Shown here: positions 4,997 to 49,349 of the stretch, piece by piece | Layout: the number at the start of each line of letters is the position of its first letter | Position numbering within the stretch: the stretch's first letter is position 1 | Assembly: GCA_052034685.1 (NCBI GenBank) | Contig: JBPOIH010000011.1 | Location: 17,910-81,909, forward strand | Source: Patescibacteria group bacterium | GTDB lineage: Bacteria; Patescibacteriota; Saccharimonadia; Saccharimonadales; CAYUUR01 | Reading direction: 5' to 3' | DNA: 64,000 bases | Made by a program: the position numbers and the translations under genes | Notes under the pieces: generated by a model | The model's input: the letters and a program-made list of their open reading frames with translations, nothing else | Databases searched by the model: none | What the model was told of the DNA's origin: nothing

Positions 4997-5328
4997 GCGG
5001 GCGAGTGGTGGGTTTGTGCGAAGCACAACAAGAAAACAATTGTATACGCGCCGCGTAACTCGTCCGCAAAGACGCTAAACTAACCTTCACAATTCAGTTC
5101 ATAATCAAGGGCGAGTGGCGGGTCTGTGTGAAACACAGCCCAAGAAAAATTGTATACGCGCCGCGTAACTCGTCCGCAAAGACGCTAAACTAACCTTCAC
5201 AACTAGACTACATAACCGCGGGCGAGTGGCGGGTTTGTGTGCAACACAACAAGAAAGTAATTGTATACGCGCCGCGTAACTCGTCCGCAAAGACACTAAA
5301 CTATGCTTAACAACTAGACTATATTACC
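4997..5328 (+). repeat. three tandem ~111-bp units (4997-5106, 5107-5217, 5218-5328) directly upstream of tRNA-Leu, each beginning with a copy of the tRNA-Leu 5' end
   Basis: Each unit starts (G/A)(C/A)GGGCGAGTGG(C/T)GG, as the tRNA does. It then has a ~30-nt insert where the D-loop would be, followed by GTATACGCGC and CGCGTAACTCGTCCGC. The periods of 110/111/111 bp were hand-counted. Confidence 0.85.
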
Positions 5329-5330
5329 GC

Positions 5331-5415
5331 GGGCGAGTGGCGGAACTGGTATACGCGCACGACTCAAAATCGTGTTCCTTACGGATTGAGGGTTCGATTC
5401 CCTCCTCGCCCACCA
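5331..5415 (+). tRNA. tRNA-Leu (anticodon CAA)
   Basis: Acceptor GGGCGAG/CTCGCCC, D arm GCGGAACTGGTATACGC, and anticodon stem-loop CACGA-CTCAAAA-TCGTG. There is a long variable arm, T arm GAGGG-TTCGATT-CCCTC, discriminator A and an encoded CCA. Confidence 0.9.
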
Positions 5416-5578
5416 ATCTAAATGCCGGCCTGTGTGCCGGCTTTTAGATTGGTGAATGAAGCGAATCGAACCCGTACGGCGCAGCCGGGGTTCGTTCATG
5501 AGGAGCTCACGCAGGAGCTTGCTCTGAGTAAGCGACGAAATGCGAGGGCAAAGCCCGAGGTCCCTCCTCGCCCACCAA
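5416..5578 (+). repeat. tRNA-downstream element, Leu copy, ending in an 18-nt copy of the tRNA-Leu 3' end
   Basis: TCCCTCCTCGCCCACCAA occurs at 5399-5416 (tRNA 3' end) and again at 5561-5578. The interior GGTTCGTTCA...CGCAGGAGCTTGCTCTGAG resembles the Ser and Asn copies. Confidence 0.6.
5424..5445 (+). terminator. rho-independent terminator after tRNA-Leu
   Basis: GCCGGC-ctgtgt-GCCGGC followed by TTTT. Confidence 0.7.
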
Positions 5579-5582
5579 GAGG

Positions 5583-6593
5583 CTAGCCAAGAATTTCTAG
5601 GAGTTGATCGGTTCTGCGGTTGAGTCGTTCAGTGACCGCACTGTCACCAACGCTGCTTTCTCCTGCGAGCATTGCTTCGTGTTCGAATACGCACTCTTCA
5701 ATAACTTTCAGTGGACTTATCCACGCAGTACCTCTGTCGTACTGCAAGGCGAGGTCTCTAGTAGCGATGACTGTAGTGATATCTTCAGCGTATATGTCTT
5801 CTGTTCGGACGGCTTTGACCTGTATCTTATAGGCCGGATAGAACTGATAAGAAGCGTCATCTTGTGTCAGGCCTAGTATGTCATATGCTGTTCGTGGCTC
5901 TCCGTATTTGCTAAATTTCACATCTTCACTAAACACCGCCGGTCGCACAAACCAACTTCCGTCACCAACTGCTTGTAGACTGAACCTTTCAAGCACCAAT
6001 GATACGGCTTGCTCGGCAGCGAGTCCCCAAAAATCACTTGTTCGCTCTGCGTCTTCATTGTCTTTGTAGTACTGCTGAGAATTAGCGATCAATTGTGACA
6101 CATTAAGGTTACGATGGTGTGCAGCTCGCAATAGTTCGGGATCCATCCTTGTTTGGGTAGGAGTTAACTGTTCGAAGATATCCATATGGGCAAGCAATAC
6201 TGCTGCTCTTGCAGTTGAATCACACGAGAATATTTCGCCTTCTGAAACGAGGGCCTGTTGCATATTGTGTCGCGCCTGTCCAAGGAATGCACTGCGGGAT
6301 CCGTCGTCTGTTTGCATGGCTATATCAAGATACATTGCACCACTGCGCGCCAGAGCTTCACTCGTTCCTTGCCCCTCGAGTTCATAGACAACCTGGAGCC
6401 TTTCGCTATTATCGGCCGCATCAGCATATCTTTTGGCAAGCTCTTTTGGGGTGGCTGTATGTGCAGGCGCCTTTTCTCCGGCCGCTCCATGATACGTCTG
6501 GTAGTGACGCTTTCGAAGCCTATCTCTCTGTTTCTGCGTTTTCGTGTAGCCGTTAGAATTGTGCTTTGACATCCACCTATTATAAAACAACAA
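5583..6593 (-). CDS. hypothetical protein
   Basis: 336-aa ORF abutting the upstream gene stop; an alternative start is M8 at 6572. No family recognised. Confidence 0.6.
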   Translation of the reverse strand: MLFYNRWMSKHNSNGYTKTQKQRDRLRKRHYQTYHGAAGEKAPAHTATPKELAKRYADAADNSERLQVVYELEGQGTSEALARSGAMYLDIAMQTDDGSRSAFLGQARHNMQQALVSEGEIFSCDSTARAAVLLAHMDIFEQLTPTQTRMDPELLRAAHHRNLNVSQLIANSQQYYKDNEDAERTSDFWGLAAEQAVSLVLERFSLQAVGDGSWFVRPAVFSEDVKFSKYGEPRTAYDILGLTQDDASYQFYPAYKIQVKAVRTEDIYAEDITTVIATRDLALQYDRGTAWISPLKVIEECVFEHEAMLAGESSVGDSAVTERLNRRTDQLLEILG

Positions 6594-13097: not shown

Positions 13098-13241
13098 TGG
13101 CGGAGAGAGAGGGGTAACGCACAGCCGCGTCCGTTCTCGGAGCGAGCTCCTGCGAGCGGACTTGCTGACCGAACCTGGCTCGAATCCCTTTTCTTCAGAG
13201 AGAAGAAAAACGGCCACACTTTTGTGTGACCATTTCTCTCC
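13098..13241 (-). repeat. tRNA-downstream element, Ser copy, ending in a 16-nt copy of the tRNA-Ser 3' end
   Basis: TGGCGGAGAGAGAGGG occurs at 13242-13257 (tRNA 3' end, plus-strand reading) and again at 13098-13113. The interior contains GACCGAACC and GGAGCGAGCTCCTGCGAG, as do the other copies. Confidence 0.6.
13203..13231 (-). terminator. rho-independent terminator after tRNA-Ser
   Basis: The minus strand reads GGTCACAC-AAAA-GTGTGGCC followed by GTTTTTCTTCT. Confidence 0.65.
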
Positions 13242-13333
13242 TGGCGGAGAGAGAGGGATTCGAACCCTCGAGACGTTTTGCAACGCCTACACGCTTTCCA
13301 AGCGTGCTCCTTCAGCCACTCGGACACCTCTCC
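13242..13333 (-). tRNA. tRNA-Ser (anticodon GGA)
   Basis: The minus strand reads GGAGAGGTGTCCGAGTGGCTGAAGGAGCACGCTTGGAAAGCGTG...GAGGGTTCGAATCCCTCTCTCTCCGCCA. The anticodon loop is TTGGAAA, with a long variable arm and an encoded CCA. Confidence 0.9.
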
Positions 13334-18467: not shown

Positions 18468-19529
18468 CTAGATAGTGAAGAGGGTTTCTTGTGTGGTGTC
18501 TTCTGGGTTTGCTTTTGGTTGCTCACTGGTCTTTTGAGTGGCTGGTTTATCTACTTTGGGCGCAACGGCAAGAGGGAAAGCCCGGCCCTGGTACTTTACG
18601 CGAGTTCTACCAGTAGTAAAATGGACGTCTTCATCTCCCTTGATACAGTGGCGACACTGCGGACAAGCACCTTGCAGTTCTTTGGGGTCATTACCAGTAC
18701 GGCGCGGCACCATTAGCTCCATATCGCCGACATTCTCTGGACAGATAGTGCCTTCCCCTTTGCTCAGTTCCATTGTTTCAACGGTGTCTTCACCGCACCA
18801 CGCGATGCGTACAAGATCACCAAACTTAGCTTTCACCTCTCGTGCTCGATCTTGATTGAAGTGGTCAACGCTCATATATAGCGCCAGATTAGGCACCTCT
18901 GCCAAGATTGGGATGACGTCAACCGGGTTCTCGCCCCAGCCAATTGAACGGGTAAACGCCCAGTGTGAGACTTTCGGGTGTCGTTTCATGACTTCTGCTG
19001 AGGCCACTGCGTAGTCCTCAGAGAAATAATCACCGTTCCAGTGTGGTCGATAGATGTAATGCCATGGTTTGGCGCCCCGACGCTTCAGTGTTTTCTCCCA
19101 CTTGTTTATGGCGGGGTCAATAACATCAATCATCTTGCCAACCGTACCAGCGTCGACTAGCCGGTTCATATTACGTTCCATCTTGGCGGCAACAGACTCC
19201 CACTCCTCTGCAGACTTGCCATAACATCCCTCACAAAATGGGGTTGCACCCGGACAGCTATCACCTGCCGGCAAGCCGTAACTATTGCCTATGCGGGCTA
19301 CGTCGTAGCGTTTGTTACGGTAGAAGCGCAAAGTACCCTCAGTTGTAAGCTTGCGAATAAACGACAGTTCGAGCGATGAGCTTTCAGGTGACGGCGCAGC
19401 TTCGTCGATAGCAGTAGCCATGTCAAAATTATTGATAGCGGTGATCTGCTCATCAGTCGGCAAAATTAGTGTTTGTGTCCCTCGTTCCATCTGTCGCTGC
19501 AGTATAGCAACGTCAGTTGTCAGAGGCAA
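18468..19529 (-). CDS. hypothetical Cys-rich protein
   Basis: 353-aa ORF with Cys clusters CPGATPFCEGC and CPQCRHC. No family recognised. Confidence 0.6.
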   Translation of the reverse strand: MPLTTDVAILQRQMERGTQTLILPTDEQITAINNFDMATAIDEAAPSPESSSLELSFIRKLTTEGTLRFYRNKRYDVARIGNSYGLPAGDSCPGATPFCEGCYGKSAEEWESVAAKMERNMNRLVDAGTVGKMIDVIDPAINKWEKTLKRRGAKPWHYIYRPHWNGDYFSEDYAVASAEVMKRHPKVSHWAFTRSIGWGENPVDVIPILAEVPNLALYMSVDHFNQDRAREVKAKFGDLVRIAWCGEDTVETMELSKGEGTICPENVGDMELMVPRRTGNDPKELQGACPQCRHCIKGDEDVHFTTGRTRVKYQGRAFPLAVAPKVDKPATQKTSEQPKANPEDTTQETLFTI

Positions 19530-27840: not shown

Positions 27841-28362
27841 CTATGCGAGAGTTACGGACGAATAGTTATCGACTTTGCTTCCGTCATACTGCACGATGCT
27901 TATTTCATGAGCCCGGCCTTGTATTGAGACGTTTTCTCTGTTCAGTTTTTCTACTAATGCCTCCATGTCGGCTTGCGTACCCGTTCCGATTCCCAGATGA
28001 GGAATGAACGGGATGTCGTGGCGTAATTCGCTTGCTAGTACGCCAGTATATAAAGCATCGTGGATGATATTTATATCATCATGGCCGATAGATGGCACAA
28101 GAAATGCGTGGAAAAACTCTCCATCGTCATTTTCTACTACCTTTGTGCCGTCAAAAACCAGGTCAAATGCTTTGGTGTCTCGGAGCGTATTTTGTACGTG
28201 CGCAACAAGCTCGTCCGCGCTGATCTTTTCAGTGCCAAAGACCAACGTAATGTGTGGTTCAACCACATCAAAATAGTGCGTGTCATGCTCTTTGCGGATA
28301 CGCTGGATTGCAGCTAAGTCTTCTGCGCTTAACTGTGGATATATAAGAGCTAAGCTTGCCAT
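27841..28362 (-). CDS. 2H phosphoesterase superfamily (LigT-like) protein
   Basis: Two H-x-T/G type motifs at the expected spacing (EPHITLVFG and FIPHLGIG). Confidence 0.55.
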   Translation of the reverse strand: MASLALIYPQLSAEDLAAIQRIRKEHDTHYFDVVEPHITLVFGTEKISADELVAHVQNTLRDTKAFDLVFDGTKVVENDDGEFFHAFLVPSIGHDDINIIHDALYTGVLASELRHDIPFIPHLGIGTGTQADMEALVEKLNRENVSIQGRAHEISIVQYDGSKVDNYSSVTLA

Positions 28363-38229: not shown

Positions 38230-38400
38230 TGGCTCCCGGGCGAGAATTGCCTGTGGCAGTTCGCAAGGAAACCGAGTGTGCGTGGCTTGGCCGACCGAAC
38301 CGACAACTTGCATCAGCTGAAGCTGTTGCTTTAGCGATTCAACTCTATACCAGGGGCAAGAAAAAAAGAGCCCAAATGGACTCATCTTTTCATGGTTCTC
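38230..38400 (-). repeat. tRNA-downstream element, diverged Asn copy C
   Basis: It starts TGGCTCCCGGG and shares TGTGCGTGGCTTGGCCGACCGAACCGACAACTTGCATCAGCTGAAGCTG with copy A at 49091-49274. By eye it is roughly 70-80 percent similar, not computed. Confidence 0.6.
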
Positions 38401-38822: not shown

Positions 38823-38898
38823 TTCCGGGGTCGGGTAACGCACGTTATCTGTGAGCCGAGCTTGCTCGGGCAACAGACTAACGACCAAGCCGACAGCC
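38823..38898 (-). repeat. degenerate fragment of the tRNA-downstream element (copy D)
   Basis: TTCCGGGGTCGGGTAACGCAC...GAGCCGAGCTTGCTCGGGC...CGACCAAGCCGACAGCC parallels the Asn/Ser copies. Confidence 0.35.
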
Positions 38899-38928
38899 TA
38901 CTGCCAGCGCTCTGTCTGGTTTGCTAAT

Positions 38929-39441: not shown

Positions 39442-39520
39442 CTACCAATAATACCATATTTTTGGTATTCGTAAAGGTCTTGACTCTTCCTTGTGGACTC
39501 ATTTCGCAACTTTGAGTGCT

Positions 39521-39904
39521 CTAAAGATTCTCGTCAAGGAATTGCTTTAAAGCTACTAAATCCCGTTTAGTATGGTCGTAGTGATAAGTTTTGATTCCTA
39601 CGGATTCTGCGCTTTTTACGGCGTCTGGATTGTGTTCAAAACACACAGTATCGCTTGCATCAAGATTCAAGTACTCCAATAATCTTTCGTAATACGCAGG
39701 ATCAGTCTTTTCTGGATTATGCTTGAGCGTAAAGACATCATAATGTTTATCATGGAGATTGTACTTTTCAAACTGTTCGTCATCAGCACCCGTGAGGATT
39801 ATCTTCAAATTATCATATGTTTCAAGAAGGTCGTACATTTCTTGAAACAATGTCCCGTCTTTATTCACCATTCCATTTATCGCGTCTACAAAGATCGTCT
39901 TCAT
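39521..39904 (-). CDS. HAD-like hydrolase fold protein (tentative)
   Basis: Trimmed to MKTIFVDAINGMV. The C-terminal FEHNPDAVKSAESVGIKTY resembles HAD motif IV, but motif I is atypical. Confidence 0.4.
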   Translation of the reverse strand: MKTIFVDAINGMVNKDGTLFQEMYDLLETYDNLKIILTGADDEQFEKYNLHDKHYDVFTLKHNPEKTDPAYYERLLEYLNLDASDTVCFEHNPDAVKSAESVGIKTYHYDHTKRDLVALKQFLDENL

Positions 39905-39980
39905 ACTGTCAGTATAGCAAAACGAGGCGTTTCTGCCTCGCATCAAACGCGTCGGTTAACTGTCTGTTAAGTAGCTTGAA

Positions 39981-40547
39981 CTATTCAGATGTCGGTATGA
40001 ATCTTGACCGACCTACAAAGGTCTCGCGGCAAATCCATAAGCTGTTTTGGTAATCTGACGCTCCCTGCCAGTTGTCTGCGTCTTCATGATCAGCTTCATA
40101 TAGTTGGCCGTTTACTAGATCAAGCGCTACGCCTCTTGTTTCACGATCAGTTTGGTTACGATCGATTGTGATAGTAGAAGGATTACGGTCAGCGATCACC
40201 TCAGCAATTGCATCAGATGTTGGCCAGCCTTTACTTGGATCTGCCTGCTTGGTTTGTACAATTTTTACATCAGCATCTTGTAGTTTCCCAAAAAAACTAC
40301 ATAACCCACTGACTGTCTCAATTAGGTTAGGTGTGTAAGAAATGTGCGCAAGTAGCCCTTTTTGTCGTTCCGGGGAGTAGATTGACACCGCCTTACACAC
40401 GTAAAGCCCCATGGTGGCAATAAATGGTCGCTCTGCACTAGATGCAGCTACGACAAATTCTCCTTCGCCGACAGCGTGGAAGTCAATTTTTTCTGTGAGT
40501 GGAACAGTTGTAAAACCGCCAATTTCTTGAGAAACCATAAAACACAC
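39981..40547 (-). CDS. hypothetical protein
   Basis: 188-aa ORF. Confidence 0.5.
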   Translation of the reverse strand: MCFMVSQEIGGFTTVPLTEKIDFHAVGEGEFVVAASSAERPFIATMGLYVCKAVSIYSPERQKGLLAHISYTPNLIETVSGLCSFFGKLQDADVKIVQTKQADPSKGWPTSDAIAEVIADRNPSTITIDRNQTDRETRGVALDLVNGQLYEADHEDADNWQGASDYQNSLWICRETFVGRSRFIPTSE

Positions 40548-40588
40548 TATATCACAAAAATAGTAATTAGTCTATAGCAGTCGATAGC

Positions 40589-40767
40589 TGGCCCCCAGGG
40601 GTCGGGTAATGCACATCTTGCACTCGTTCTCGGAGTAAACTCCTGCGGGCGAGCTGGATGACCGAACCAACAACTTGCCTCAGCTGAAGCTGCTGCGTTG
40701 CCGATTCAAATCAAAGCCCAAGAGAATGAAAAAAGACCCTCACATGAGGATCTTTTTTCATTGGCTC
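40589..40767 (-). repeat. tRNA-downstream element, copy B; its last 108 bp form the left direct repeat of the RiPP islet
   Basis: 40660-40767 matches 49173-49280 at 107 of 108 positions (hand-aligned). This includes the terminator hairpin and the first 6 nt of the tRNA-Asn 3' end. Confidence 0.8.
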
Positions 40768-40881
40768 TCCCTAGTGGACGTACTTCGCAACTATTCAATT
40801 ACAGATTTTAGTTGTCCTACGGGCATTATGATTAACTATCTGTATTCAAAAGCTTCTTGCCCATAGATAAATCTGGCTGCT

Positions 40882-41406
40882 TTATTGTGGGTTTGTCATA
40901 GCTCGCAAGTATTTGAGAGTCAGGGACACATTATAATCATGCGTGTTACCGTCAAGTTCGACACAGCTGATATTATCCTCACTTCTCTTCACCATTGTTA
41001 ACACATCCTGATATGTGCCCATTGGGTCATTGTTGTTCTGCAGGATACAGATCGGCATATGACATTTACCGATCCACTCGTCTACCGGTAGGTCAGTATT
41101 TTTAAGCAGATTAATTGGTAGGCCAGCAAAGATACAGGAGTCTGGATTGAGGAAACCTTCAGCAATCAGCTTGAGCGCAAGTACTGATCCTACCGATTTT
41201 GCAATGACACAAGAGAAATTTCTCTGGTCGATAATTGGCTTGAGTCGAAGAATCTCGGCGTCCAAATCAATATACTGGTCGCCGTTTTCCCAATGCAGGT
41301 AGCTAACCGGTGTAACATCAAAGCTCGATCTGGCTGCTTTAGTCAGCTTCAATAGCCAAGTTGCATTCTTGCTGCTGTTACCTGGAAGTATTAGTATATT
41401 TTTCAC
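40882..41406 (-). CDS. small alpha/beta-hydrolase-fold protein
   Basis: 174 aa with a GTG start preceded by AAAGGA. It has a nucleophile-elbow-like AKSVGS, a later NNNDP and GNTHDY. It overlaps the kinase gene by 29 nt. Confidence 0.55.
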   Translation of the reverse strand: MKNILILPGNSSKNATWLLKLTKAARSSFDVTPVSYLHWENGDQYIDLDAEILRLKPIIDQRNFSCVIAKSVGSVLALKLIAEGFLNPDSCIFAGLPINLLKNTDLPVDEWIGKCHMPICILQNNNDPMGTYQDVLTMVKRSEDNISCVELDGNTHDYNVSLTLKYLRAMTNPQ

Positions 41407-42334
41407 GAACGATCCTTTCTATATTCATTAAATCAATCTCCATGTTGATACATTCAAGCGCAATATGAAGTATGCGTGCCTTCTCGCCCTGGTTCATGAG
41501 GAGATCATCATAAGGCACCCACTTATTATTGATTCGATAAATAATAGTCGCCAATAAACAGCCTACAATTAGTTTTTCGTCTTTTTTCTCGAACATCTGT
41601 TGTTCTAACGATGTATATCCAGACATGAACTGGCTTACGGCACCGGGACTGTGGGGTGTGCTAATAGTATGCAATAACAAATGACCGAGAACATAGCCCA
41701 ATTCAAAGACAACATTTCCGATGTGTGCCTTATCAAAATCAATGAAGTATACGTGCTCATTATTGAATAGTATGTTTTTTGGAGACAGGTCACCCATGAT
41801 GAAGGATCTATGTGCATTTTTCAGCTGCGTTGGAAGCCAACTGAGTCCTGCGTATCCCAACGATTCTATGTGATTAAATAACGCAGAACTGTAAAAATCA
41901 CGATCGTCTTTACGGACAAAGTTAATTTCAGTAGTAGCATTGTGGACTCTAGCCACTGAAGCGCCTAACAGATAAAAGAATTCTGGCTTAAGTTTATTCG
42001 AGTTCAGTGATTGTGTGATTATGGTTGCGTTACGGTCAACTGATGTTAGTAAAGCACACCCCAAACTCTCATTATATGCAAGAAGCTTCGGAAAATACTC
42101 AAGAGATGTTGAATCTAGAATTTCTAACGCATGTGCTTCTCTGGCTATGTCGTCAGGAGAAGACGCGACATGGCTGTTGAGTTTGTAATGTGTTCCTCTG
42201 ATTTTCAAATAATAAGTCTCTATATCTGTGCTAATTCGGAAGACGCGATGTATTGAACCTCCACTAACCTCTTGCATAGAGAAAGGCTTGTTAAGTACTT
42301 GGGATGTGAATTTTTTGTACTTGGTGTCTAGCAT
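41378..42334 (-). CDS. APH/choline-kinase-fold phosphotransferase
   Basis: Has a Gly-rich loop (VSGGSIHRVFRI), YYLKIRG (Lys), a catalytic loop GDLSPKNILF and the metal site YFIDFDKA. The start was trimmed to ATG 42334, 7 nt after the YcaO-fusion stop. Confidence 0.7.
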   Translation of the reverse strand: MLDTKYKKFTSQVLNKPFSMQEVSGGSIHRVFRISTDIETYYLKIRGTHYKLNSHVASSPDDIAREAHALEILDSTSLEYFPKLLAYNESLGCALLTSVDRNATIITQSLNSNKLKPEFFYLLGASVARVHNATTEINFVRKDDRDFYSSALFNHIESLGYAGLSWLPTQLKNAHRSFIMGDLSPKNILFNNEHVYFIDFDKAHIGNVVFELGYVLGHLLLHTISTPHSPGAVSQFMSGYTSLEQQMFEKKDEKLIVGCLLATIIYRINNKWVPYDDLLMNQGEKARILHIALECINMEIDLMNIERIVREKYTNTSR

Positions 42335-42341
42335 TTTATAC

Positions 42342-44552
42342 CTAAGGGAAAAAATGAGGGGGATTAGGGTATTTTGACCAACGGGAAGGATAATCAAGAA
42401 CAGAGAACCGTTCATGTGCAAGGGGTTCGTTACCGAAACCGAAATTGAGCGGCAGAAGCACGGGACTGATTATGCGAATCACCCATAAATCGTATTCATC
42501 TACTGGATACTTCATGACAACTTCAATTGGACGGTATTGCTTTATCAGTTCATTCATTTCACCTTCAAAACTGCGCAGTTCATTGACATTTTGGCCTTCA
42601 GAAAAAAGCCAGTCTGTCTCGGCTCTTTTTTTGTTGGCGTAGTAAAGTCCATGATGGTGTGGTGATTCTATATCAACTTTAGCAGGTGACTTATTTCTCT
42701 CTTTGAGCCATGAGAGTAGAGTTGCTTCAAGTTCATCAAAGGCCTTCATTAGTGCCTTATTGTAACTATGGCTTGCCGCCGCTCCGACTACGAAGTATGG
42801 GTAGCTGGTTCGTCTGATGCATATTAATACGGTAGGTACTTGATCAGTCGTTATATCTAAGAATACTAGTTCACTTCCCTTTTCATCAAGCCAGAAAGAC
42901 GCCCGTTGTTTAATGTCTGCAGGAATTAGTTTAAGTGGTATTTGACCGAACGGCCGCTTTGTAAACCAGAGACTTGTAATTGCATCTCGTTCAATAAGTT
43001 CGTACAAAGCACGGACGCGAGCTTCTTCCCTGTCAAAGTGAGCGGCAACTCCGCTTGAACTTATGTTGCAGATTAGCTTGCGTTTCAGCTTCTCTTGGTA
43101 CAGAGGATAGAACACTTGATCGATGATAATGAGTCGTTTGCTGCTATCAGATAGATCGGTTCCTTCTATCCACTGATATTTTTTGGTTGGTGAGAATTTC
43201 TCATAGCGAGCAGAAATTTCTCGCCGCTTATACCACCTATCATCAATAGGCCATAACTGATCTGGGTTAATTGGATCGCAACGCTCTGTCAAATTTTGGT
43301 AAGTATCCTCAACATCATATCTCAGATGGCCGCTTGCAAGGCGCTCTATAGCTTCTGCAATGGTTTTTATATTCGCTTCCAAGGAAGAGTAGCCAGTTGC
43401 AAAAGAAAAACCTTTCATCTTTTTATCTTCAGCTTTTTTTTCAATACTGCGGAAACTTGCTAAGGACGAGACGCGTGGCATATAGTGGTCGGCGTATGTT
43501 AACTCTTCTGCATCGATCCACTCAATCAACTTCCCGTCTCCAACGTATTTTTCCATTAAGTGCCAAAGCTTTTTCATTTGCTCGAGAGGTAGTTCATAGC
43601 TGGTGTCTTTCTCGTCCTTCTCGTACGGTGAAATTATTAGCGGGATTATCGGTGTTTGATTTTGTGTCAGGCTGAATATCTCACGAAATCGGGTGCTATT
43701 AAAACCACCGTACTCTAAAACACCGATTTCTTTCTCGGCACATAACAGTTGGATATTCTGGGCTACATGGCCGCTCTCAAGTAAGGTATATATAAAGCCG
43801 CGATTACTGTACTTTTTTGTGTGAAGAGAAGTATCAGCTGAAATGAGTATGATTGCATCAGCGTTTGTAGCGACATCTTCTCCGCCAAGCGCATAGCGCA
43901 CGTCTTCTATAGAGTATGCGAAATTCTTAACTGGTTCCAACACCTGTTCCACGGCGGAATAAGAATAGACTCCTTGGGAATATTCCCCTATTGTATTCAA
44001 GATGAGCACATTGAAGGATAACGGATATAGTGCCCCAGCTGATGGGACGGTTGAATGTCCGTTGATAAAATACATACGCCCAAGGATGTAATCCAAATCT
44101 GCCTGAGATGTACTCCGTGTTGACGAGAAGGTGCGCGTAGTTTTTCTTTTACGGAGAATAGTCTCAAGTTGTGACTGCTGGCTCGGGTTACCTCCAGTTG
44201 CCGTTCCACGTGCAATTGAAACCGGACTACGTAAGTTAGTTATTTCGTTTGGATTGATCGCTGACCTATATAAGGATTCGTATTGTGTGCTCGTAAGGTA
44301 TGACTTATAGAGTTCTGAAGAATCAGCGACAATACCGAGTTCCTCAAGATCTCTGAGTAACTGCTCAGTGACACGGAGCTTCATCCCAGCCGCCTCAGCT
44401 ATTTCGTTAATGGTGCGAAGGCCATTACAAAACGGTAATATGCAGAAGATTTCTTTAATGTGGCTCTGTATAGTGCACTCACCCTTTTGCGTTATAAACG
44501 TAGCGCCGGCAGGGGTTTTGTAACCAAAAGTAATTGTTAGAGGTTTATCCAT
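42342..44552 (-). CDS. fusion protein: N-terminal wHTH (RRE-like) + SagB-type FMN dehydrogenase + YcaO domain
   Basis: wHTH-like: TINEIAEAAGMKLRVTEQLLRDLEELGIV. SagB-like: ILRKRKTTRTF, PSAGALYP, YTLLESGHVAQN. YcaO-like: ATGYSSLEANIKTIAEAIERLA, SSSGVAAHFDREEARVRALYELIERDA and a Pro-rich C-terminus PNPPHFFP. The start was trimmed to ATG 44552 because the longer ORF overlaps the upstream hairpin. Confidence 0.85.
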   Translation of the reverse strand: MDKPLTITFGYKTPAGATFITQKGECTIQSHIKEIFCILPFCNGLRTINEIAEAAGMKLRVTEQLLRDLEELGIVADSSELYKSYLTSTQYESLYRSAINPNEITNLRSPVSIARGTATGGNPSQQSQLETILRKRKTTRTFSSTRSTSQADLDYILGRMYFINGHSTVPSAGALYPLSFNVLILNTIGEYSQGVYSYSAVEQVLEPVKNFAYSIEDVRYALGGEDVATNADAIILISADTSLHTKKYSNRGFIYTLLESGHVAQNIQLLCAEKEIGVLEYGGFNSTRFREIFSLTQNQTPIIPLIISPYEKDEKDTSYELPLEQMKKLWHLMEKYVGDGKLIEWIDAEELTYADHYMPRVSSLASFRSIEKKAEDKKMKGFSFATGYSSLEANIKTIAEAIERLASGHLRYDVEDTYQNLTERCDPINPDQLWPIDDRWYKRREISARYEKFSPTKKYQWIEGTDLSDSSKRLIIIDQVFYPLYQEKLKRKLICNISSSGVAAHFDREEARVRALYELIERDAITSLWFTKRPFGQIPLKLIPADIKQRASFWLDEKGSELVFLDITTDQVPTVLICIRRTSYPYFVVGAAASHSYNKALMKAFDELEATLLSWLKERNKSPAKVDIESPHHHGLYYANKKRAETDWLFSEGQNVNELRSFEGEMNELIKQYRPIEVVMKYPVDEYDLWVIRIISPVLLPLNFGFGNEPLAHERFSVLDYPSRWSKYPNPPHFFP

Positions 44553-44610
44553 ATGTGATTGTATTTGTTTAATAAGAAAAATGCACAGGCGAGTTCCCCC
44601 GCCCATACAT

Positions 44611-44636
44611 TAAAAAAAGCGCCTTTATGTGCGCTA
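44611..44636 (-). terminator. short hairpin + U7 between the precursor ORF and the enzyme gene (attenuator-like)
   Basis: The minus strand reads AGCGC-acataaag-GCGCT followed by TTTTTTT. Confidence 0.55.
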
Positions 44637-44644
44637 TATGAACT

Positions 44645-44737
44645 CTAGCTTGATCCTGAACAGGACATCGCTGCGTAAGATCGTGCTTTTGTAGCAACTT
44701 TACTGTTGTAAGAGCTTACTGATGCTTTGATCTTCAT
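44645..44737 (-). CDS. candidate RiPP precursor peptide, 30 aa (not in the ORF track)
   Basis: AAAGGAGG, 5 nt, then ATG. The hand translation is MKIKASVSSYNSKVATKARSYAAMSCSGSS*. It lies immediately upstream of the YcaO fusion gene. Confidence 0.65.
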   Translation of the reverse strand: MKIKASVSSYNSKVATKARSYAAMSCSGSS

Positions 44738-44773
44738 GCCAACCTCCTTTCTCAACAAGACGTTGTGAGAAGA

Positions 44774-44802
44774 ATTATCATCTATACGGAATAAAAAGTC
44801 AA
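44774..44802 (-). promoter_or_regulatory. sigma70-like promoter for the precursor ORF
   Basis: The minus strand reads TTGACT, 17 nt, GATAAT. The -10 ends ~36 nt upstream of the ATG. Confidence 0.55.
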
Positions 44803-44819
44803 TCAGCACTCGCTATCTA

Positions 44820-46784
44820 CTAACTGCGTAAGACTGCCAGAGCTCTCAAAGCTATTCCGTCGGCATCTAACCCTGTAAATTTTTCTAATTCTGGGATCGT
44901 CCCAGTTGTGCCGCGTGTAAAACCATGACCCTCGAGCAATCCGAACCTAAGCTCTGATTGACCACATAACGCACTAGCAACCTGGGACCTTAGTATTTCT
45001 GGGTTCCCATTGTATACAGCAAGTATTGGGTGTTCGGGTACAAGTTGATTTACGAATCTTGTGTCGAGAGTCTTAGGGGAGACCACGCTGACCACACGAG
45101 CACCAACCTTATTATCCCTTTCAAGTCGCTTAGAGGCGTTAATCGCTCCGTCAACCGTCATGCCACTACTCACCATAGTTATTACCGGATCGACATCTGG
45201 CTCGAACGCAACATAGCTTTCAAAGTTGTCCTGGTCTCCATATGGTCGGTCGATTAGAGGAATATTTTTCGGATGCAAACGCACGTAGGTCAAACCGTTA
45301 TTTGTCCCTAGGGCATGGTTAAAGATGTTATAGAGATCGCGGACATCTGCTGGCTCATAAAACTGAACTTCTGGAATGTGCATCAGCGCGCCTGGCTGGC
45401 TCATGGATTGGTGCGTCTTACCGTTCTGGGCTTGACTGATTCCAGCATACTCACCTGCGATCAGCATATTGCTTCCGCCCTGGGCGGCAGCATTAATCTG
45501 GTCTAAGGCCCGGTAGAGGAAAGCATCGCCGTAGTTGATGAATATCCGTGCATCAGGATTCTCCGTTGAAATTCCATGAGCCATCGCAATCGTGTGTTGT
45601 TCACGTATGCCCGTATCGAAGTAGTGTGCATACTCCCGGAATCTAGCTTGGTCGACGTAGTCTTTGCGTAAAAAATCAGGAGTAAGCACATAAAATGGTA
45701 ATTCAGGATGCCGCTCAAGAAATTCACTATAACTCTTGAAGTAGCTAAACTGCGCGTAATCCAAGTTGTTAGCATGTGATTCATCCAGTTCTATCTTGAG
45801 ATCTTCCGGTGTAGTCCGGGAATCCGAGAAATCTGATCTGTTTCGTTTGCGTGGCGAAGCAACAAGCTTCCTCGCTGTTGCCGCGACCGATTCTCCTCCG
45901 GCTGCACTAAGTTCTTCATTTAGGAGGTCAATACCGTCTTTTACTGTGCTAGGAGGACACACGCTCAAAGTATGGTAGCCGCTAAAATGTTCTTCAGCCC
46001 CAGCCAGCCCAATGCCTTTTGTCGTGTGAGCAATTACCATCGTGGGACGATCAATATGTTGTAGCTCATCATACATATCAAGTACTTGTGTTACGTCATT
46101 GGCATTTTCAATCTCTTTAACTTTCCAGCCGTAACCTTCCCATACTTTCCTGAGGTCTGTGTTCGAATCTACATCTTCAGTGCCCCCAGATAACTGTTTT
46201 GTATTTTGGTCGATAATACAAATGAGATTATCCAAAGGCTGGGAGGTAGCGAAGCGTGCCGCTTCGCTCACATTGCCTTCCTGCTCTTCTCCGTCTCCAA
46301 GAAAAACGATAACTCGTTCATCATTGTCACTTCGTTTTATTTCAGTTGCAGCACCTATACCGTACGAAAGAAGCATTCCTAGTGAGCCGCTTGGTGTTAT
46401 GTCAACACCAGGCGTGACGTGCATATCTTCATGGCCCTGCAATCGTGAACCATATCGCCTATATGTGCCAAGTTCGTCCCGGTCCAGATAGCCCATAAGA
46501 GCAAATATAGGATATCTGACTGGCCCCTCATGTCCTCTTATCAGCACCCTGTCCCTTCCTGGGTCCTTATCATCCTCAGGGTTGAAATGGAACTGGCCTC
46601 CAAAGTACAAGCATGTTAGTAGTTCCACGGATGATGAGGAGCCTCCGAGGTGGCCACTTTCTGCAGCCAGTACCATCTCAAAACCGTCTCGGCGAACATA
46701 GGACGAGATTTCTTGGAGCTGACCTACCAGCTGCTCTCTCTGCAAGGACGTATCAACATTGACTTCATGAATTTCAGCCGACAC
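44820..46784 (-). CDS. fused transketolase-like thiamine-diphosphate enzyme (N-terminal + C-terminal sections in one polypeptide)
   Basis: Contains ESGHLGGSSSSVELLTCLY and the ThDP motif GDGEEQEGNVSEAARFA...IIDQN. The Pyr-domain reads GIREQHTIAMAHG...RALDQI, followed by a C-terminal domain. The start was moved to GTG 46784, which is preceded by AGGAG. Confidence 0.8.
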   Translation of the reverse strand: MSAEIHEVNVDTSLQREQLVGQLQEISSYVRRDGFEMVLAAESGHLGGSSSSVELLTCLYFGGQFHFNPEDDKDPGRDRVLIRGHEGPVRYPIFALMGYLDRDELGTYRRYGSRLQGHEDMHVTPGVDITPSGSLGMLLSYGIGAATEIKRSDNDERVIVFLGDGEEQEGNVSEAARFATSQPLDNLICIIDQNTKQLSGGTEDVDSNTDLRKVWEGYGWKVKEIENANDVTQVLDMYDELQHIDRPTMVIAHTTKGIGLAGAEEHFSGYHTLSVCPPSTVKDGIDLLNEELSAAGGESVAATARKLVASPRKRNRSDFSDSRTTPEDLKIELDESHANNLDYAQFSYFKSYSEFLERHPELPFYVLTPDFLRKDYVDQARFREYAHYFDTGIREQHTIAMAHGISTENPDARIFINYGDAFLYRALDQINAAAQGGSNMLIAGEYAGISQAQNGKTHQSMSQPGALMHIPEVQFYEPADVRDLYNIFNHALGTNNGLTYVRLHPKNIPLIDRPYGDQDNFESYVAFEPDVDPVITMVSSGMTVDGAINASKRLERDNKVGARVVSVVSPKTLDTRFVNQLVPEHPILAVYNGNPEILRSQVASALCGQSELRFGLLEGHGFTRGTTGTIPELEKFTGLDADGIALRALAVLRS

Positions 46785-46804
46785 TATCTTCTCCTGTTTT
46801 GCCA

Positions 46805-46833
46805 AATCTACATGGAGCACTGATGTTTGTCAA
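46805..46833 (-). promoter_or_regulatory. sigma70-like promoter for the transketolase-like gene
   Basis: The minus strand reads TTGACA, 17 nt, TAGATT, followed by AGGAG and GTG. Confidence 0.45.
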
Positions 46834-46842
46834 GTAGTGGAG

Positions 46843-46851
46843 TGCTATAAT
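46843..46851 (+). promoter_or_regulatory. extended -10 element (TGcTATAAT) for the divergent flavoprotein gene
   Basis: GTGCTATAAT lies on the plus strand 14 nt upstream of ATG 46865. Confidence 0.4.
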
Positions 46852-46864
46852 GCTAGTTATATTT

Positions 46865-48382
46865 ATGAACAAAGATAACATGGATCCTGGACGCCAAGTA
46901 CTTGCGGATGTGAGTAAGGGTTCGGCGATTAACATCACTATTGTAGGATTTGGCGCGGCCGGGCTCGCCTTTTTCGTTCATTTGACTCAGATTCTTGTCA
47001 CTAAGTCGCACGCTAACAACGTCACTATCACAATAATCGATGATGGTAATTTAGCAAAAGGAGTGGCATATAGTGTTACATCTTCTGAAATGGTTCTAAA
47101 CTTTGACGCAAGGCTGATGAATGTCACTCATGACAAGCAACGTGATTTCATGCAATGGCGCCAAGAGAACTCGGGCAAGCATAAGCATCTTGACATAGAT
47201 CTTGATGATTTTTATCCGCCGCGTGGTGAGTTCGGCGCTTACCTGTATGATCGCTGGCAGCAATATCGCAGAATGGCTGAGTCTCATGGAATAACGGTTG
47301 ATCTGGTTACGGATACGGTGACAGACATCCAGCAGACTAATGATGCTTACCTCGTAACGACCTCAACGAAAAGGATTATTGCAAACCATGTCTTGCTTGC
47401 CCTCGGGTGCCAGCAAAAAGAAGCGTATCCATCGATGTTGAGTACCACGGGATATTACAGTGGATTTGATGACAATATTTCCATCAACAACGAAAAGGAT
47501 ATTGTGATTCTTGGTTCACGTCTAACTGCTATAGACGTCGTTCTTGATCTTAAACTACGACAGCGAGTTCCGAATCGGGTACATCTCGTTTCAGATAGCG
47601 GTGACCTGCCGATGGTTCTGTCAACATACAAGCCTTATGATTTAAAATACGCTACAAAGAGTACACTCCTTGCAGCAGCTAAAAGAGCCAACAGTGCAGG
47701 TGGGGATGTTTTCGTGAACACAATATTTCGCGAGCTAGAATTAATCAACCTAGACAACGTACTCGATCGCTCAAATGCTCAGGATGCCTCTGTCGACAGA
47801 TTTTACAAAGATGTTGCAGCTGTGAGGTCCGGCTCGACCATTAATTGGCAGATGGTTCTTATAAGCATATACCCTCACCTTCATGAAGCATGGGGAATGC
47901 TTGACGATAAGGTTAAGGACGACCTGTATCACAAATACCATCATGCATGGGTGAAGCATTTTGTTTCAATCCCGCTAAAGAACGCTGAGAAAATCGAAAA
48001 ACTCCTTAAAAGTGGTGAGGTTATGGTTCACAGTGGCATTAAAAGTTTAGAAGCAGAAGGCGCGGATGATTATTTTGTTTCAACAGATGGGAAAAAAATA
48101 CATGCTGGGTCGATTGTTAATGCCATAGGCTTAAATCATGATCTCACTCTTAACAGGTTACTGAAACGGATGTACGCTCGTGGTATCCTAAGTACAAGCT
48201 TTCTTGGAGATATCAGAATTGCTGTAAATGACTGCAGGATAGTATGTCAAAATCAAACAAAACATGAGATATACGCAATTGGTGAATATACTCACGGTTC
48301 ATGGCTGACGGTTAGTGATTTACAGCAAATATCAAAACAGGCTCTTCTGGCAGCAACATCTATTCTTGCTGGCACCGTATAA
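46865..48382 (+). CDS. FAD/NAD(P)-binding two-Rossmann-domain protein
   Basis: Contains ITIVGFGAAGLAF (GxGxxG) and a second dinucleotide fold, DIVILGSRLTAIDVVLDL. The start is uncertain (46850, 46865 or 46880). Confidence 0.7.
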   Translation: MNKDNMDPGRQVLADVSKGSAINITIVGFGAAGLAFFVHLTQILVTKSHANNVTITIIDDGNLAKGVAYSVTSSEMVLNFDARLMNVTHDKQRDFMQWRQENSGKHKHLDIDLDDFYPPRGEFGAYLYDRWQQYRRMAESHGITVDLVTDTVTDIQQTNDAYLVTTSTKRIIANHVLLALGCQQKEAYPSMLSTTGYYSGFDDNISINNEKDIVILGSRLTAIDVVLDLKLRQRVPNRVHLVSDSGDLPMVLSTYKPYDLKYATKSTLLAAAKRANSAGGDVFVNTIFRELELINLDNVLDRSNAQDASVDRFYKDVAAVRSGSTINWQMVLISIYPHLHEAWGMLDDKVKDDLYHKYHHAWVKHFVSIPLKNAEKIEKLLKSGEVMVHSGIKSLEAEGADDYFVSTDGKKIHAGSIVNAIGLNHDLTLNRLLKRMYARGILSTSFLGDIRIAVNDCRIVCQNQTKHEIYAIGEYTHGSWLTVSDLQQISKQALLAATSILAGTV

Positions 48383-48439
48383 GGTGTATTGTTCCAAATC
48401 GTGTTGACAGTTTTACAATAAAGTAGTATTTTCACTAAT

Positions 48440-48958
48440 ATGAATAAAGCACATATCACTTTAGAATCTAGCCAACAATCTCCAACTACCGAGGGTCTTC
48501 AAACGATCGATATATCTAAACAGCTTTATGGACGAGTCTCCCGCCAAGGATTAGCCGGGCAGCTTACTGCTCCAGATGAGACTCTGGCAAGATGGGCAGC
48601 ATTGCTAGATAAAAAAGTTGAATCCAAGGGGCCTGATTCATATATTGAACTTGCTAACGCAACGCGGTGGTCAGTAGGGCGGGTTGCACTCGCTGAGATT
48701 TCTCTCGATGAGGATAATTTACATGTCCACGGCATTCGTTATGAGGCATGTGACCTGGGAGATGTTTCTGTGTTGGGACTGGCACTCCTTACTGCTGACG
48801 CTGAAGTAATTACGTCCCCTCTTCTGGTAATTACATCTGGAGTGTATGAGAACCCGCTCGGTGTGCGTACTGCAGATTCTCCCTTGTTGAATCCTGATCT
48901 GCAACCTACAGGTCATTGGGTAGATCAAGTCGACACAATCATGTCGTCAGTTGCCTAG
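48440..48958 (+). CDS. hypothetical protein
   Basis: 172-aa ORF, the last gene of the islet. Confidence 0.5.
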   Translation: MNKAHITLESSQQSPTTEGLQTIDISKQLYGRVSRQGLAGQLTAPDETLARWAALLDKKVESKGPDSYIELANATRWSVGRVALAEISLDEDNLHVHGIRYEACDLGDVSVLGLALLTADAEVITSPLLVITSGVYENPLGVRTADSPLLNPDLQPTGHWVDQVDTIMSSVA

Positions 48959-49051
48959 AAGTTAGTAATCAATCTTTCAAGTAACTATATGTCAGTATTA
49001 CATCACTCGCGGTAGTTCGAAGTGCGTCCATTCGCCCCACCCAATATTAAA

Positions 49052-49080
49052 AACAGAGGAATACTGCCTCTGTTAATTTA
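49052..49080 (+). terminator. hairpin terminator
   Basis: AACAGAGG-aatactg-CCTCTGTT followed by an A/T-rich tail. Confidence 0.55.
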
Positions 49081-49090
49081 GTTCTAAACT

Positions 49091-49274
49091 TGGCTCCCGG
49101 GGTCGGATAATGCACGGCTGCAGCCATGCTCCCCGGCTTCCTTGCAGGAGGCCGGGTGTGCGTGGCTTGGTCGACCGAACCAACAACTTGCTTCAGCTGA
49201 AGCTGCTGCGTTGCCGATTCAAATCAAAGCCCAAGAGAATGAAAAAAGACCCTCACATGAGGATCTTTTTTCAT
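49091..49274 (-). repeat. tRNA-downstream element, Asn copy A (contains the tRNA-Asn terminator and the right direct repeat)
   Basis: It begins with TGGCTCCCGGGGTCGGA, a 17-nt copy of the tRNA-Asn 3' end at 49275-49291. The terminator is AGATCCTCA/TGAGGGTCT flanked by A6/T6. Confidence 0.8.
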
Positions 49275-49349
49275 TGGCTCCCGGGGTCGGATTCGAACCG
49301 ACAACCTCGAAGTTAACAGCTTCTTGCTCCACCATTGAGCTACCCGGGA
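49275..49349 (-). tRNA. tRNA-Asn (anticodon GUU)
   Basis: The minus strand reads TCCCGGGTAGCTCAATGGTGGAGCAAGAAGCTGTTAACTTCGAGGTTGTCGGTTCGAATCCGACCCCGGGAGCCA. It is 75 nt, the anticodon loop is CTGTTAA, and CCA is encoded. Confidence 0.9.

Follow-up and report, generated by a model that had tools for sequence, protein, structure and literature searches.

Short tRNA-linked units with a conserved core hairpin in Saccharibacteria: candidate non-autonomous integrative modules

Each tRNA gene in the 64-kb stretch of DNA analysed here (the window; 64,000 nt in full) has a short element behind it whose far end repeats the 3′ end of the same tRNA, which raises the question of whether such elements are mobile DNA, a structured RNA or the scars of unrelated insertions. 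The window is in places 78–91 % identical to Saccharibacteria genome bins, so that an origin in this lineage is most likely. These bacteria are ultra-small, live as epibionts and have genomes of about 1 Mb. To our knowledge they hold few recognisable mobile elements and the gain and exchange of accessory genes in them are poorly understood. A compact unit behind a large share of their tRNA genes would give a testable handle on gene flow in this group.

Layout of the units and their tRNA-derived parts

ARAGORN and Rfam agree on three tRNA genes in the window; a ‘tmRNA’ call at 5109–5415 is a spurious extension of tRNA-Leu.

5331–5415, + strand: tRNA-Leu(CAA); its last 17 nt recur at 5561–5577
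13242–13333, − strand: tRNA-Ser(GGA) (ARAGORN, Rfam)
49275–49349, − strand: tRNA-Asn(GTT) (ARAGORN, Rfam)

All three genes have a unit directly behind them. The copied segment consists of the T-stem 3′ strand, the acceptor 3′ strand, the discriminator base and CCA, and the copies are exact over 17 nt for Leu (5561–5577 against 5399–5415, the following base matching too), 16 nt for Ser (13098–13113 against 13242–13257) and 17 nt for Asn (49091–49107 against 49275–49291). Degenerate copies of the Asn 3′ end are found at 40589–40606 and 38230–38240. Every coordinate given for these copies in the original prediction was borne out by sequence comparison, as was the common layout that it described behind the Leu, Ser and Asn genes.

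Six units are present in the window, one behind tRNA-Leu, one behind tRNA-Ser and four arrayed behind tRNA-Asn, with a size of about 145–185 bp from the tRNA CCA to the end of the repeat. Their parts follow a fixed order: tRNA CCA, a terminator hairpin, a hairpin with GGTTCG(R)TC as its 3′ arm, a conserved hairpin and the tRNA 3′-end copy. In tRNA sense, the hairpin with its T run is followed after 20–60 nt by GGTTCG(G/T)TC, with the 3′-end copy about 65–80 nt further on.

5416–5449, + strand: Leu unit, terminator hairpin, bidirectional; the stem extends, the tRNA CCA pairing with TGG
5450–5497, + strand: Leu unit, hairpin 1, with GCGAATCGAACCC (complement of a T-loop) as 5′ arm and GGGGTTCGTTC as 3′ arm
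5497–5542, + strand: Leu unit, conserved core hairpin; P1–P2, CGCA/GAG internal loop, P3 GGAG-CTTG-CTCT; 60.8 bits
5543–5560, + strand: Leu unit, linker and small extra hairpin, within the part 5543–5577
5561–5577, + strand: Leu unit, 3′-end copy of 17 nt (T-stem 3′ strand, acceptor 3′ strand and CCA of tRNA-Leu)
13098–13241, − strand: Ser unit; covariance model 75.6 bits
13198–13241, − strand: Ser unit, terminator
13176–13197, − strand: Ser unit, T-loop-complement arm
13167–13175, − strand: Ser unit, GGTTCGGTC
13122–13167, − strand: Ser unit, core hairpin
13114–13121, − strand: Ser unit, linker TGCGTTAC
13098–13113, − strand: Ser unit, 16-nt tRNA 3′-end copy
49091–49274, − strand: Asn unit A; covariance model 33 bits
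49239–49274, − strand: Asn unit A, terminator
49210–49238, − strand: Asn unit A, complement of the tRNA 3′ third
49188–49209, − strand: Asn unit A, inner hairpin
49173–49187, − strand: Asn unit A, T-stem 5′ copy and GGTTCGGTC
49108–49172, − strand: Asn unit A, divergent core
49091–49107, − strand: Asn unit A, 17-nt 3′-end copy
40589–40761, − strand: Asn unit B; covariance model 69.4 bits
40660–40761, − strand: Asn unit B, left half, near-identical to unit A
40607–40659, − strand: Asn unit B, canonical core
40589–40606, − strand: Asn unit B, degenerate 3′-end copy
38823–38919, − strand: Asn unit D, degenerate; GCTGTCGGCTTGGTC, variant hairpin, GTGCGTTA, CCCGACCCCGG
38230–38392, − strand: Asn unit C; terminator, hairpin 1, A-type core, 3′-end copy
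38360–38392, − strand: Asn unit C, terminator
38293–38359, − strand: Asn unit C, hairpin 1 with T-stem 5′ copy
38241–38292, − strand: Asn unit C, A-type core
38230–38240, − strand: Asn unit C, 11-nt 3′-end copy

A consensus terminator scan of the window flagged, among the unit hairpins, those of Leu and Asn-C alone; it missed the hairpin and T run of Ser (−17.3 kcal/mol, z −6.5) and of Asn-A/B (−22.2 kcal/mol, z −7.2).

The original prediction placed the tRNA-matched part of the unit in the 3′-end copy; this part stands, yet it is not the only one, as the GGTTCG and T-stem 5′ copies and a complement also match the tRNA. GGTTCG is a copy of the start of the T-loop, and in long forms the 8 nt before it match the unit's own tRNA at 6–8 positions. 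The complement of GGTTCG, GA(A/T)TCGAACC, is located upstream of it; long forms add to this the complement of the T-stem 5′ strand and a conserved inner hairpin, AGATTTTC...GAAAATAT. The conserved core hairpin thus occupies the T-loop in a partial copy of the tRNA 3′ third. The 3′-end copy spans 14–18 exact nt in 18 of 39 non-redundant tRNA–unit pairs; several copies stop after about 10 nt or have diverged, often with the core intact.

At five loci (L014, L018, L024, L028 and L029) and in the Asn units of the window, the segment behind the terminator is an imperfect complement, about 30 nt long, of the tRNA. Cognate duplexes in this subset are up to 4.7 sd better than non-cognate ones. For the T-stem-3′/acceptor part, cognate pairing reaches 8.3 of 12 positions vs 7.8 for non-cognate pairing (p=0.009). 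A full antisense copy of the tRNA 3′ third was considered as a universal feature and rejected, a position-restricted test assigning it to a subset only.

Conserved core and its distribution

The interiors of the units share short motifs. In the window, CGCAGGAG-N4-CTCYGAG has three matches (0.00 expected), GTTGKYGGTTCGGTC occurs exactly three times (0.39 expected) and GGTCGRCCAAGCCACGCACAC twice (0.00 expected), while GTGCRTTAYCC is exact at the Ser, Asn-A and Asn-B units and at Asn-D (38823–38919). Both the small hairpin motif noticed at first in the Ser, Leu and Asn-B copies (3 vs 0.00 expected) and the GTGC(A/G)TTA noticed in the three Asn copies A, B and D and in Ser (present at all four as the longer exact motif) were thus upheld. 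The unit motifs are not over-represented elsewhere in the window, and a DNA uptake sequence was ruled out on this ground.

A covariance model was built from 32 cores of relatives. Within the window it picks out the Ser (75.6 bits), Asn-B (69.4 bits), Leu (60.8 bits) and Asn-A (33 bits) units, the remainder being noise; in the collected sequences it finds 88 copies, 67 of them distinct. Rather than dissolving under a statistical alignment and lacking relatives, the outcome that was to count against a single family, the interior likeness across tRNAs did the opposite and produced 88 model matches. These matches, together with the shared covarying hairpin, show that the units form the one family proposed in the original prediction.

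Base pairs of the core take all Watson–Crick forms in RNAalifold (for example GC 12, UA 10 and AU 8 at one pair, UA 16 and CG 16 at another). In the first alignment, with a three-helix structure, covariation was 0.406 vs 0.124 in shuffled alignments (0/500) and 0.015–0.065 with the partners slid. In the model-fitted alignment of the 67 distinct copies, which leans towards the structure used for its fitting, two-sided change is seen in 13 of 15 pairs and covariation was 0.509 vs 0.162 shuffled (0/500), falling to 0.10 or less with the partners slid. The covariation test proposed at the outset thus strongly supports a central core hairpin conserved by covariation. Within the core lies an invariant internal loop, N-CGCA-[stem-loop]-GAG-N′, the closing pair of which occurs in all four Watson–Crick forms. 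Divergent copies keep the loop and compensate the stem (GAAG/CTTC, GGAAT/ATTCC, GATGC/GCATC, AGAAT/ATTCT).

The best-preserved copies are predicted to form a three-way junction, with the complement paired to the two halves of the divided tRNA copy (L024, −63 kcal/mol, z −6.6; L029, z −3.5). Several known structures were considered and set aside. A kink-turn reading of the CGCA/GAG loop was rejected by eye, the bulge and tandem G-A being absent on both strands; a tRNA-like minihelix with a free CCA was ruled out, as the CCA pairs with TGG; and Rfam gave no match to a group II intron domain V, or to an intron behind the terminator. Rfam has no family for the unit, the matches above threshold being only tRNAs and one group I intron, and low-threshold matches over the Ser unit are tRNA-driven or due to chance.

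Closely similar cores are found behind Tyr, Ile and Asn tRNAs of different genomes, as anticipated by the original prediction in its proposal that the target-matching 3′ module had been swapped between tRNA identities. Conversely, neighbouring units within an array have left halves that are near-identical up to GGTTCGGTC, with different cores. The unit family is thus modular, and its breakpoint lies at the T-loop motif or close to it.

A scan of one genome per species with the pattern GGTTCGNTC-N10-14-CGCAGGAG-N3-5-CTCYGAG returned 34 loci. The arrangement of the unit is present at 31; the other three, within coding sequence (Terriglobia, Roseibacillus, Acidobacteriota), were judged chance matches on inspection. 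Of the 31, 27 are labelled Candidatus Saccharibacteria or Saccharimonadales, one is labelled ‘Patescibacteria group’, and three belong to contigs assigned to Acetothermia or Limnocylindria bins, perhaps in error. The same pattern gave 41 loci in metagenomes, of which two were chance matches and 39 were retained. Comparison with relatives, as first suggested, therefore reveals the same architecture at 31 genome and 39 metagenome loci, and units are located behind at least 12 tRNA identities, almost all in Saccharibacteria. The pattern scan had no match in viral contigs, nor did a BLAST search of unit B in phage and plasmid collections.

The arrangement is present behind 3/3 tRNA genes in the window and absent behind some tRNA genes elsewhere. 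The tRNA genes Asp (L030), Thr (L002) and Met (L034) have neither unit nor terminator and are followed directly by a gene. Such unit-less genes belong to different species or different tRNAs, and strain-level polymorphism is seen for cassettes alone. Look-ups of exact proteins for strain variants of the window loci returned contigs that break at tRNAs, or nothing.

Gene cassettes and explanations of the units

Units in arrays border gene cassettes, a feature that goes beyond what was originally described. Read outward, the Asn array consists of the tRNA, unit A, an 8.3-kb cassette, unit B, cassette 2a and a degenerate cassette end, then onward to one gene, unit D, one gene and unit C.

40792–49090, unstranded: cassette 1 (8.3 kb), from the domain content of its ORFs; no recombinase
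40762–40791, − strand: right end of cassette 1, GTTGCGAAGTACGTCCACTA plus GGGAGAGCCA (end of tRNA-Asn)
39511–40588: cassette 2a
39481–39510, − strand: degenerate cassette-end motif closing cassette 2a, GTTGCGAAATGAGTCCACAA plus GGAAGAGTCA

Cassette 1 holds a 172-aa ORF and genes for an FAD/NAD-binding protein, a transketolase-like protein, YcaO plus nitroreductase, an APH-like kinase and a hydrolase; the motif at its right end also closes cassettes at L055, L006, L018 and L021. Right ends of cassettes consist of a conserved motif followed by the last 9–10 nt of the tRNA, the motif being GTTGCGAAGTACGTCMACTA for Asn and Lys and a different, likewise conserved motif for Met. By eye, the cassette-end motif is similar to roughly the final 18 nt of the unit core and linker. 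Cassettes at other loci encode an AadA-like nucleotidyltransferase, an APH-family kinase, a racemase and peptidase, a Vgb-lyase-like protein and a PadR regulator. Locus L035 is 99 % identical to L041/L044, of a closely related strain, through tRNA-Met and the unit to the CCA of the repeat; beyond the repeat, 2.9 kb in L035 and 1.9 kb in L041/L044 contain different genes before the sequences re-converge. The unit-bordered exchangeable cassettes include homologues of antibiotic-modifying enzymes and a YcaO cluster.

Tandem units bounded by the tRNA-end repeat are found at L016, L027 and L039, and in the array at L006 units separate cassettes. A left junction of an L006 cassette, CCCTCCTGGC followed across the junction by ACTCC, would destroy a real tRNA; such junctions fit a role of the 3′-end copy as a safe landing site. 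Arrays, repeat-bounded tandems and unit-less tRNA genes together indicate that the units behave like DNA elements. The scan of 50 window ORFs detected no domain of a recombinase, transposase or reverse transcriptase, and no recombinase is among the 25 Pfam families listed (all families with at least two members) for 149 ORFs around units at 31 loci. With no integrase nearby, the units are not autonomous and cannot move on their own.

These properties make it somewhat probable that the units are non-autonomous integrative modules of about 145–185 bp, specific for tRNA 3′ ends in Saccharibacteria. Their junctions have the pattern of a Campbell-type site-specific insertion with the crossover in the last 16–18 bp of the tRNA gene. 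Of the miniature tRNA-targeting integrative elements first proposed, the insertion junctions are therefore retained, with the correction that the lack of an integrase nearby leaves the units unable to move alone. As a circle, the unit would comprise the tRNA-end copy, the terminator, the T-arm complement, the inner hairpin, the T-stem 5′ copy with GGTTCG and the core, and insertion of such a circle at a tRNA 3′ end would yield exactly the observed order of parts. The unit places a strong terminator immediately behind the tRNA, and would on this reading also supply the 3′ end now used by the tRNA. The displaced copy of the tRNA end may serve as a harmless secondary attachment site, at which further units and cassettes could insert and exchange with the single-copy tRNA gene left unbroken. 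The recombinase would presumably be encoded elsewhere and act in trans, with the inverted T-arm sequences and the conserved hairpin as its putative recognition site, possibly folded as a single strand in imitation of the target duplex, by analogy with attC and the CTX phage attP(+).

Several observations weigh against the integrative reading. No excised form was seen, and the loci include no pair of strains that differ by the unit itself. A new tRNA target would require a joint change of three tRNA-matched segments. Copies of about 10 nt, or diverged copies, are not predicted by simple insertion unless later cargo or decay is invoked. Compensatory changes of the core across many species could equally reflect selection on an RNA, and the tRNA-specific complementarity behind the terminator is clear in the subset only and weak overall.

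A broader version, in which the units form a tRNA-anchored cassette system with an integron-like role, is possible but doubtful; here the unit would be a recombination site equivalent to attC/attI, recognised as a folded strand or through an RNA guide, either of which would mimic or pair with the T-arm/acceptor region of the tRNA gene, with a recombinase in trans and the tRNA-end copy as a decoy site. A folded-strand or guide site re-matched to a dozen tRNAs would, if real, be a new type of programmable integration site served by a recombinase in trans.

The main rival to the reading as integrative modules is that the unit works as a structured non-coding RNA: a trailer of the tRNA, produced by read-through or processing and active in tRNA metabolism, for instance as a protein-binding platform or as an antisense or decoy directed at the tRNA 3′ end, with the tRNA-derived parts as functional pairing segments. 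Such an RNA would account for the covariation of the core (13/15 pairs two-sided, 0.509 vs 0.162 shuffled), the invariant N-CGCA-[stem]-GAG-N′ loop, the frequent location behind tRNA genes (3/3 in the window) and the lack of a mobility gene near the units. Folding of the whole unit is likewise better in tRNA sense (−63.2 vs −59.1 kcal/mol; 34/50, p=3e-5), with more G-U pairs (255 in tRNA sense vs 166). The core alone, however, has no preference for the sense strand, and changes in the complement are of G-U type just 87 times vs 62 of A-C type. The trailer RNA is also less likely because a strong, often bidirectional terminator lies directly upstream, between tRNA and unit, with no room for a promoter. 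Rfam holds no matching family, the 3′-end copy is often diverged or truncated beside an intact core, and the unit–cassette arrays, repeat-bounded tandems and unit-less tRNAs are properties of a DNA element. An RNA function is hence considered unlikely; if correct, it would define a new, widespread class of tRNA-linked structured RNA.

It is improbable that the unit encodes or forms a guide like the IS110 bridge RNA or a homing guide RNA, steering a recombinase in trans by base pairing. One conserved scaffold followed by a 16–18-nt segment identical to the target, combined with 12 different targets, would suit such a guide, as would the complement to the other side of the T-loop and the lack of a cis-encoded recombinase. 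Yet IS110-type, TnpB-type and Cas genes are absent from the window ORFs scanned and from the families listed for ORFs around units, the matching segment is often degenerate, the adjoining intact tRNA gene would stay a target, and the upstream terminator argues against expression. The tRNA-matching segments, moreover, pair together instead of being displayed in loops. A guide of TnpB/IscB type (scaffold and 16-nt guide) was rejected specifically, as the adjacent tRNA would be self-targeted and no such gene is nearby, and an IS110 bridge RNA was rejected for want of a DEDD recombinase and for the pairing, outside loops, of the tRNA-matching segments.

Still less probable is an origin of the sense–antisense–sense layout in replication template switching at terminator hairpins, by fold-back copying with neither machinery nor function. 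The terminator stem does continue into CCA:TGG, at some loci it is prolonged as a long, imperfect palindrome shared with the tRNA 3′ third, and inverted tRNA segments lie on both sides of the inner hairpin as well; but the conservation of core and inner-hairpin sequences across 12 tRNAs and dozens of genomes, the covariation and the conserved cassette ends are left unexplained by such copying.

Independent ordinary att scars of unrelated, later deleted islands or prophages, with interior likeness that is coincidental or due to integrase arm sites, are scarcely credible: an integrase normally leaves direct repeats of tRNA 3′ ends, and islands beside tRNAs with scattered partial tRNAs are known, such as the Prochlorococcus tycheposons (bioRxiv 10.1101/2020.12.28.424599), but 88 model matches with one architecture and precise boundaries, covariation that denotes a maintained fold, a hairpin motif found three times against 0 expected in the window, and complete elements of 145–185 bp from tRNA CCA to repeat at many tRNAs do not fit, and the alignment statistics already contradict this explanation. 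The att remnants offered as an alternative in the original prediction are therefore kept as integrative junctions and given up as three unrelated scars, the copies forming one covarying family.

Relation to known systems

The units fall outside tRNA islands, CIMEs (cis-mobilizable elements), integrons and Xer-exploiting elements because no integrase, attC core sites or dif are found. In our judgement, the unit represents site-specific integration at tRNA genes in a form for which no description was found in a full-text search of the literature; the nearest publications concern group I introns in Patescibacteria tRNAs (PMC13011429) and the tycheposons.

Islands at tRNA genes (Islander-type islands and tycheposons) resemble the units in that they insert at the tRNA 3′ end, restore the tRNA and leave a partial copy at the far end, and in that successive insertions create arrays with accessory-gene cargo in a streamlined genome; in Prochlorococcus, tycheposon islands are insertions at tRNA genes with partial tRNAs (bioRxiv 10.1101/2020.12.28.424599). 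Such islands are integrase-borne, whereas units and cassettes have no integrase in or near them, and the recurring element here is only 145–185 bp. The units also differ from att sites in two features, an inverted T-loop sequence and a covarying hairpin placed within the T-loop of a partial copy of the tRNA. We know of no att site for which either feature has been described.

CIMEs, like the units, are flanked (by attL and attR), have no integration genes and are presumably mobilised in trans. They are kilobase-sized decay products of ICE or IME parents, whereas the units form a compact family whose fold is conserved. Like the units, REPINs and MITEs are small, hairpin-forming, non-coding and present in many copies per genome; the units, however, occur strictly at tRNA 3′ ends and correspond to the individual tRNA in each case. 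The terminal inverted repeats and fixed-length duplication of MITEs are absent, the inverted sequences of the units being internal and their repeat a tRNA segment of variable length, and no transposase is among the neighbouring-ORF families listed.

Elements that lack a recombinase of their own and use a host enzyme include CTX phage with its attP(+), IMEX and the pdif modules of Acinetobacter plasmids. Single-stranded CTX phage DNA has an inverted repeat that folds into a mimic of the chromosomal target; the integrated phage reads target copy, inverted arm, loop and target copy, the same order as in the units. The target here is a tRNA gene instead of dif, the unit is far smaller than a phage, and folding as a single strand is our inference.

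Integron attC sites, also in CALINs (integrase-less attC clusters), are like the units short, structure-conserved, sequence-variable imperfect palindromes that separate gene cassettes; these cassettes lack a recombinase of their own, and AadA-like and APH-like cargo is found here too. Sites of attC type are recombined as folded single strands. Their core-site consensus, RYYYAAC...GTTRRRY, is absent here by eye, and neither IntI nor another tyrosine recombinase was found in the window ORFs scanned or among the families listed for the loci; in place of attC core sites, unit ends and cassette ends carry GTGCRTTA or GTTGCGAAGTACGTCMACTA, after which comes the end of the tRNA. A tRNA gene takes the place of attI as the anchor of the array, its junctions carry the tRNA 3′-end copy, and the cassettes can hold several genes in both orientations. 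Structured elements that separate exchangeable cassettes, as in an integron, are nevertheless present in the Asn array of the window, at L006 and at L035/L041.

Sequences associated with the units

An (A)AGCATAAGCAT-like sequence recurs across loci, 3′ of the last repeat (the copied tRNA 3′ end closing each unit) or of a unit-less tRNA, both in the window and in loci outside it (L numbers; mostly Candidatus Saccharibacteria genomes or metagenomes). Behind this sequence come terminators whose stem reads ACAGAGG/CCTCTGT; this may be one more conserved module 3′ of the tRNA.

Positions of the (A)AGCATAAGCAT-like sequence
Window 49052–49074
L018, about 2530–2570
L021, about 2915–2960
L041, 7470–7510

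Units are also found in tandem: a 2.1-kb stretch of L039 (1–2140) carries three tRNA-Ser genes, two of them each with two tandem units behind, and one such pair is an exact 165-bp duplication, repeat to repeat. Further mini-elements follow a unit-like logic with other interiors (L023, L005 and L002). The one behind tRNA-His carries a ~90-nt unrelated insert within its T-loop copy.

Mini-elements with other interiors
L023 1522–1700, after tRNA-His, 20-nt repeat
L005 about 975–1052 (−) and L002 about 2284–2360 (−), 78-nt type after tRNA-Thr, 12–13-nt repeat

The variable region and cassette 1

Window positions 26000–50000 are a variable region, which extends far past the last unit of the tRNA-Asn array (unit C, 38230–38392 (−)). 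GC content is lower here, at 0.41–0.47 versus about 0.49, and the closest genome bin, L011, has 1.8 kb in its syntenic stretch, with different gene content, where this region has about 12.8 kb. Cassette 1, the 8.3 kb between Asn units A and B (40792–49090), holds what looks like a small gene cluster modifying peptides or metabolites, including a YcaO and nitroreductase fusion of 754 aa. Such a cluster would be unusual in a Saccharibacterium.

Genes in and around the variable region (window positions)
18468–19529 (−), phage-type GP88 domain protein
27841–28362 (−), 2′-5′ RNA ligase (LigT-like), within the variable region
41378–48382, cassette 1 genes: YcaO and nitroreductase fusion, transketolase-like, FAD/NAD(P)-binding protein, APH-like kinase
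50265–56372 (+), 2035-aa ORF adjoining tRNA-Asn on the side opposite the array

The tRNA-Leu neighbourhood and intron-split tRNA-Asn

ARAGORN called a tmRNA at window 5109–5415 (tag peptide APRNSSAKTLNYA) whose 3′ limit is identical to the tRNA-Leu end. No tmRNA was matched there by Rfam, and because the Rfam match is to a tRNA only, the call is false. A neighbouring ORF has no Pfam match; by eye, it contains a D...QVK motif, PD-(D/E)xK nuclease-like.

ORF beside tRNA-Leu
Window 5583–6593 (−), 336 aa, ending 5 nt from the Leu repeat

At L008 1281–1574, and likewise in L037 and L075, a unit stands after the 3′ exon of a tRNA-Asn containing a group I intron (91.7 bits to Rfam Intron_gpI in L008). 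ARAGORN missed the interrupted gene; tRNAs with group I introns overlooked by this program have been published for Patescibacteria (PMC13011429).
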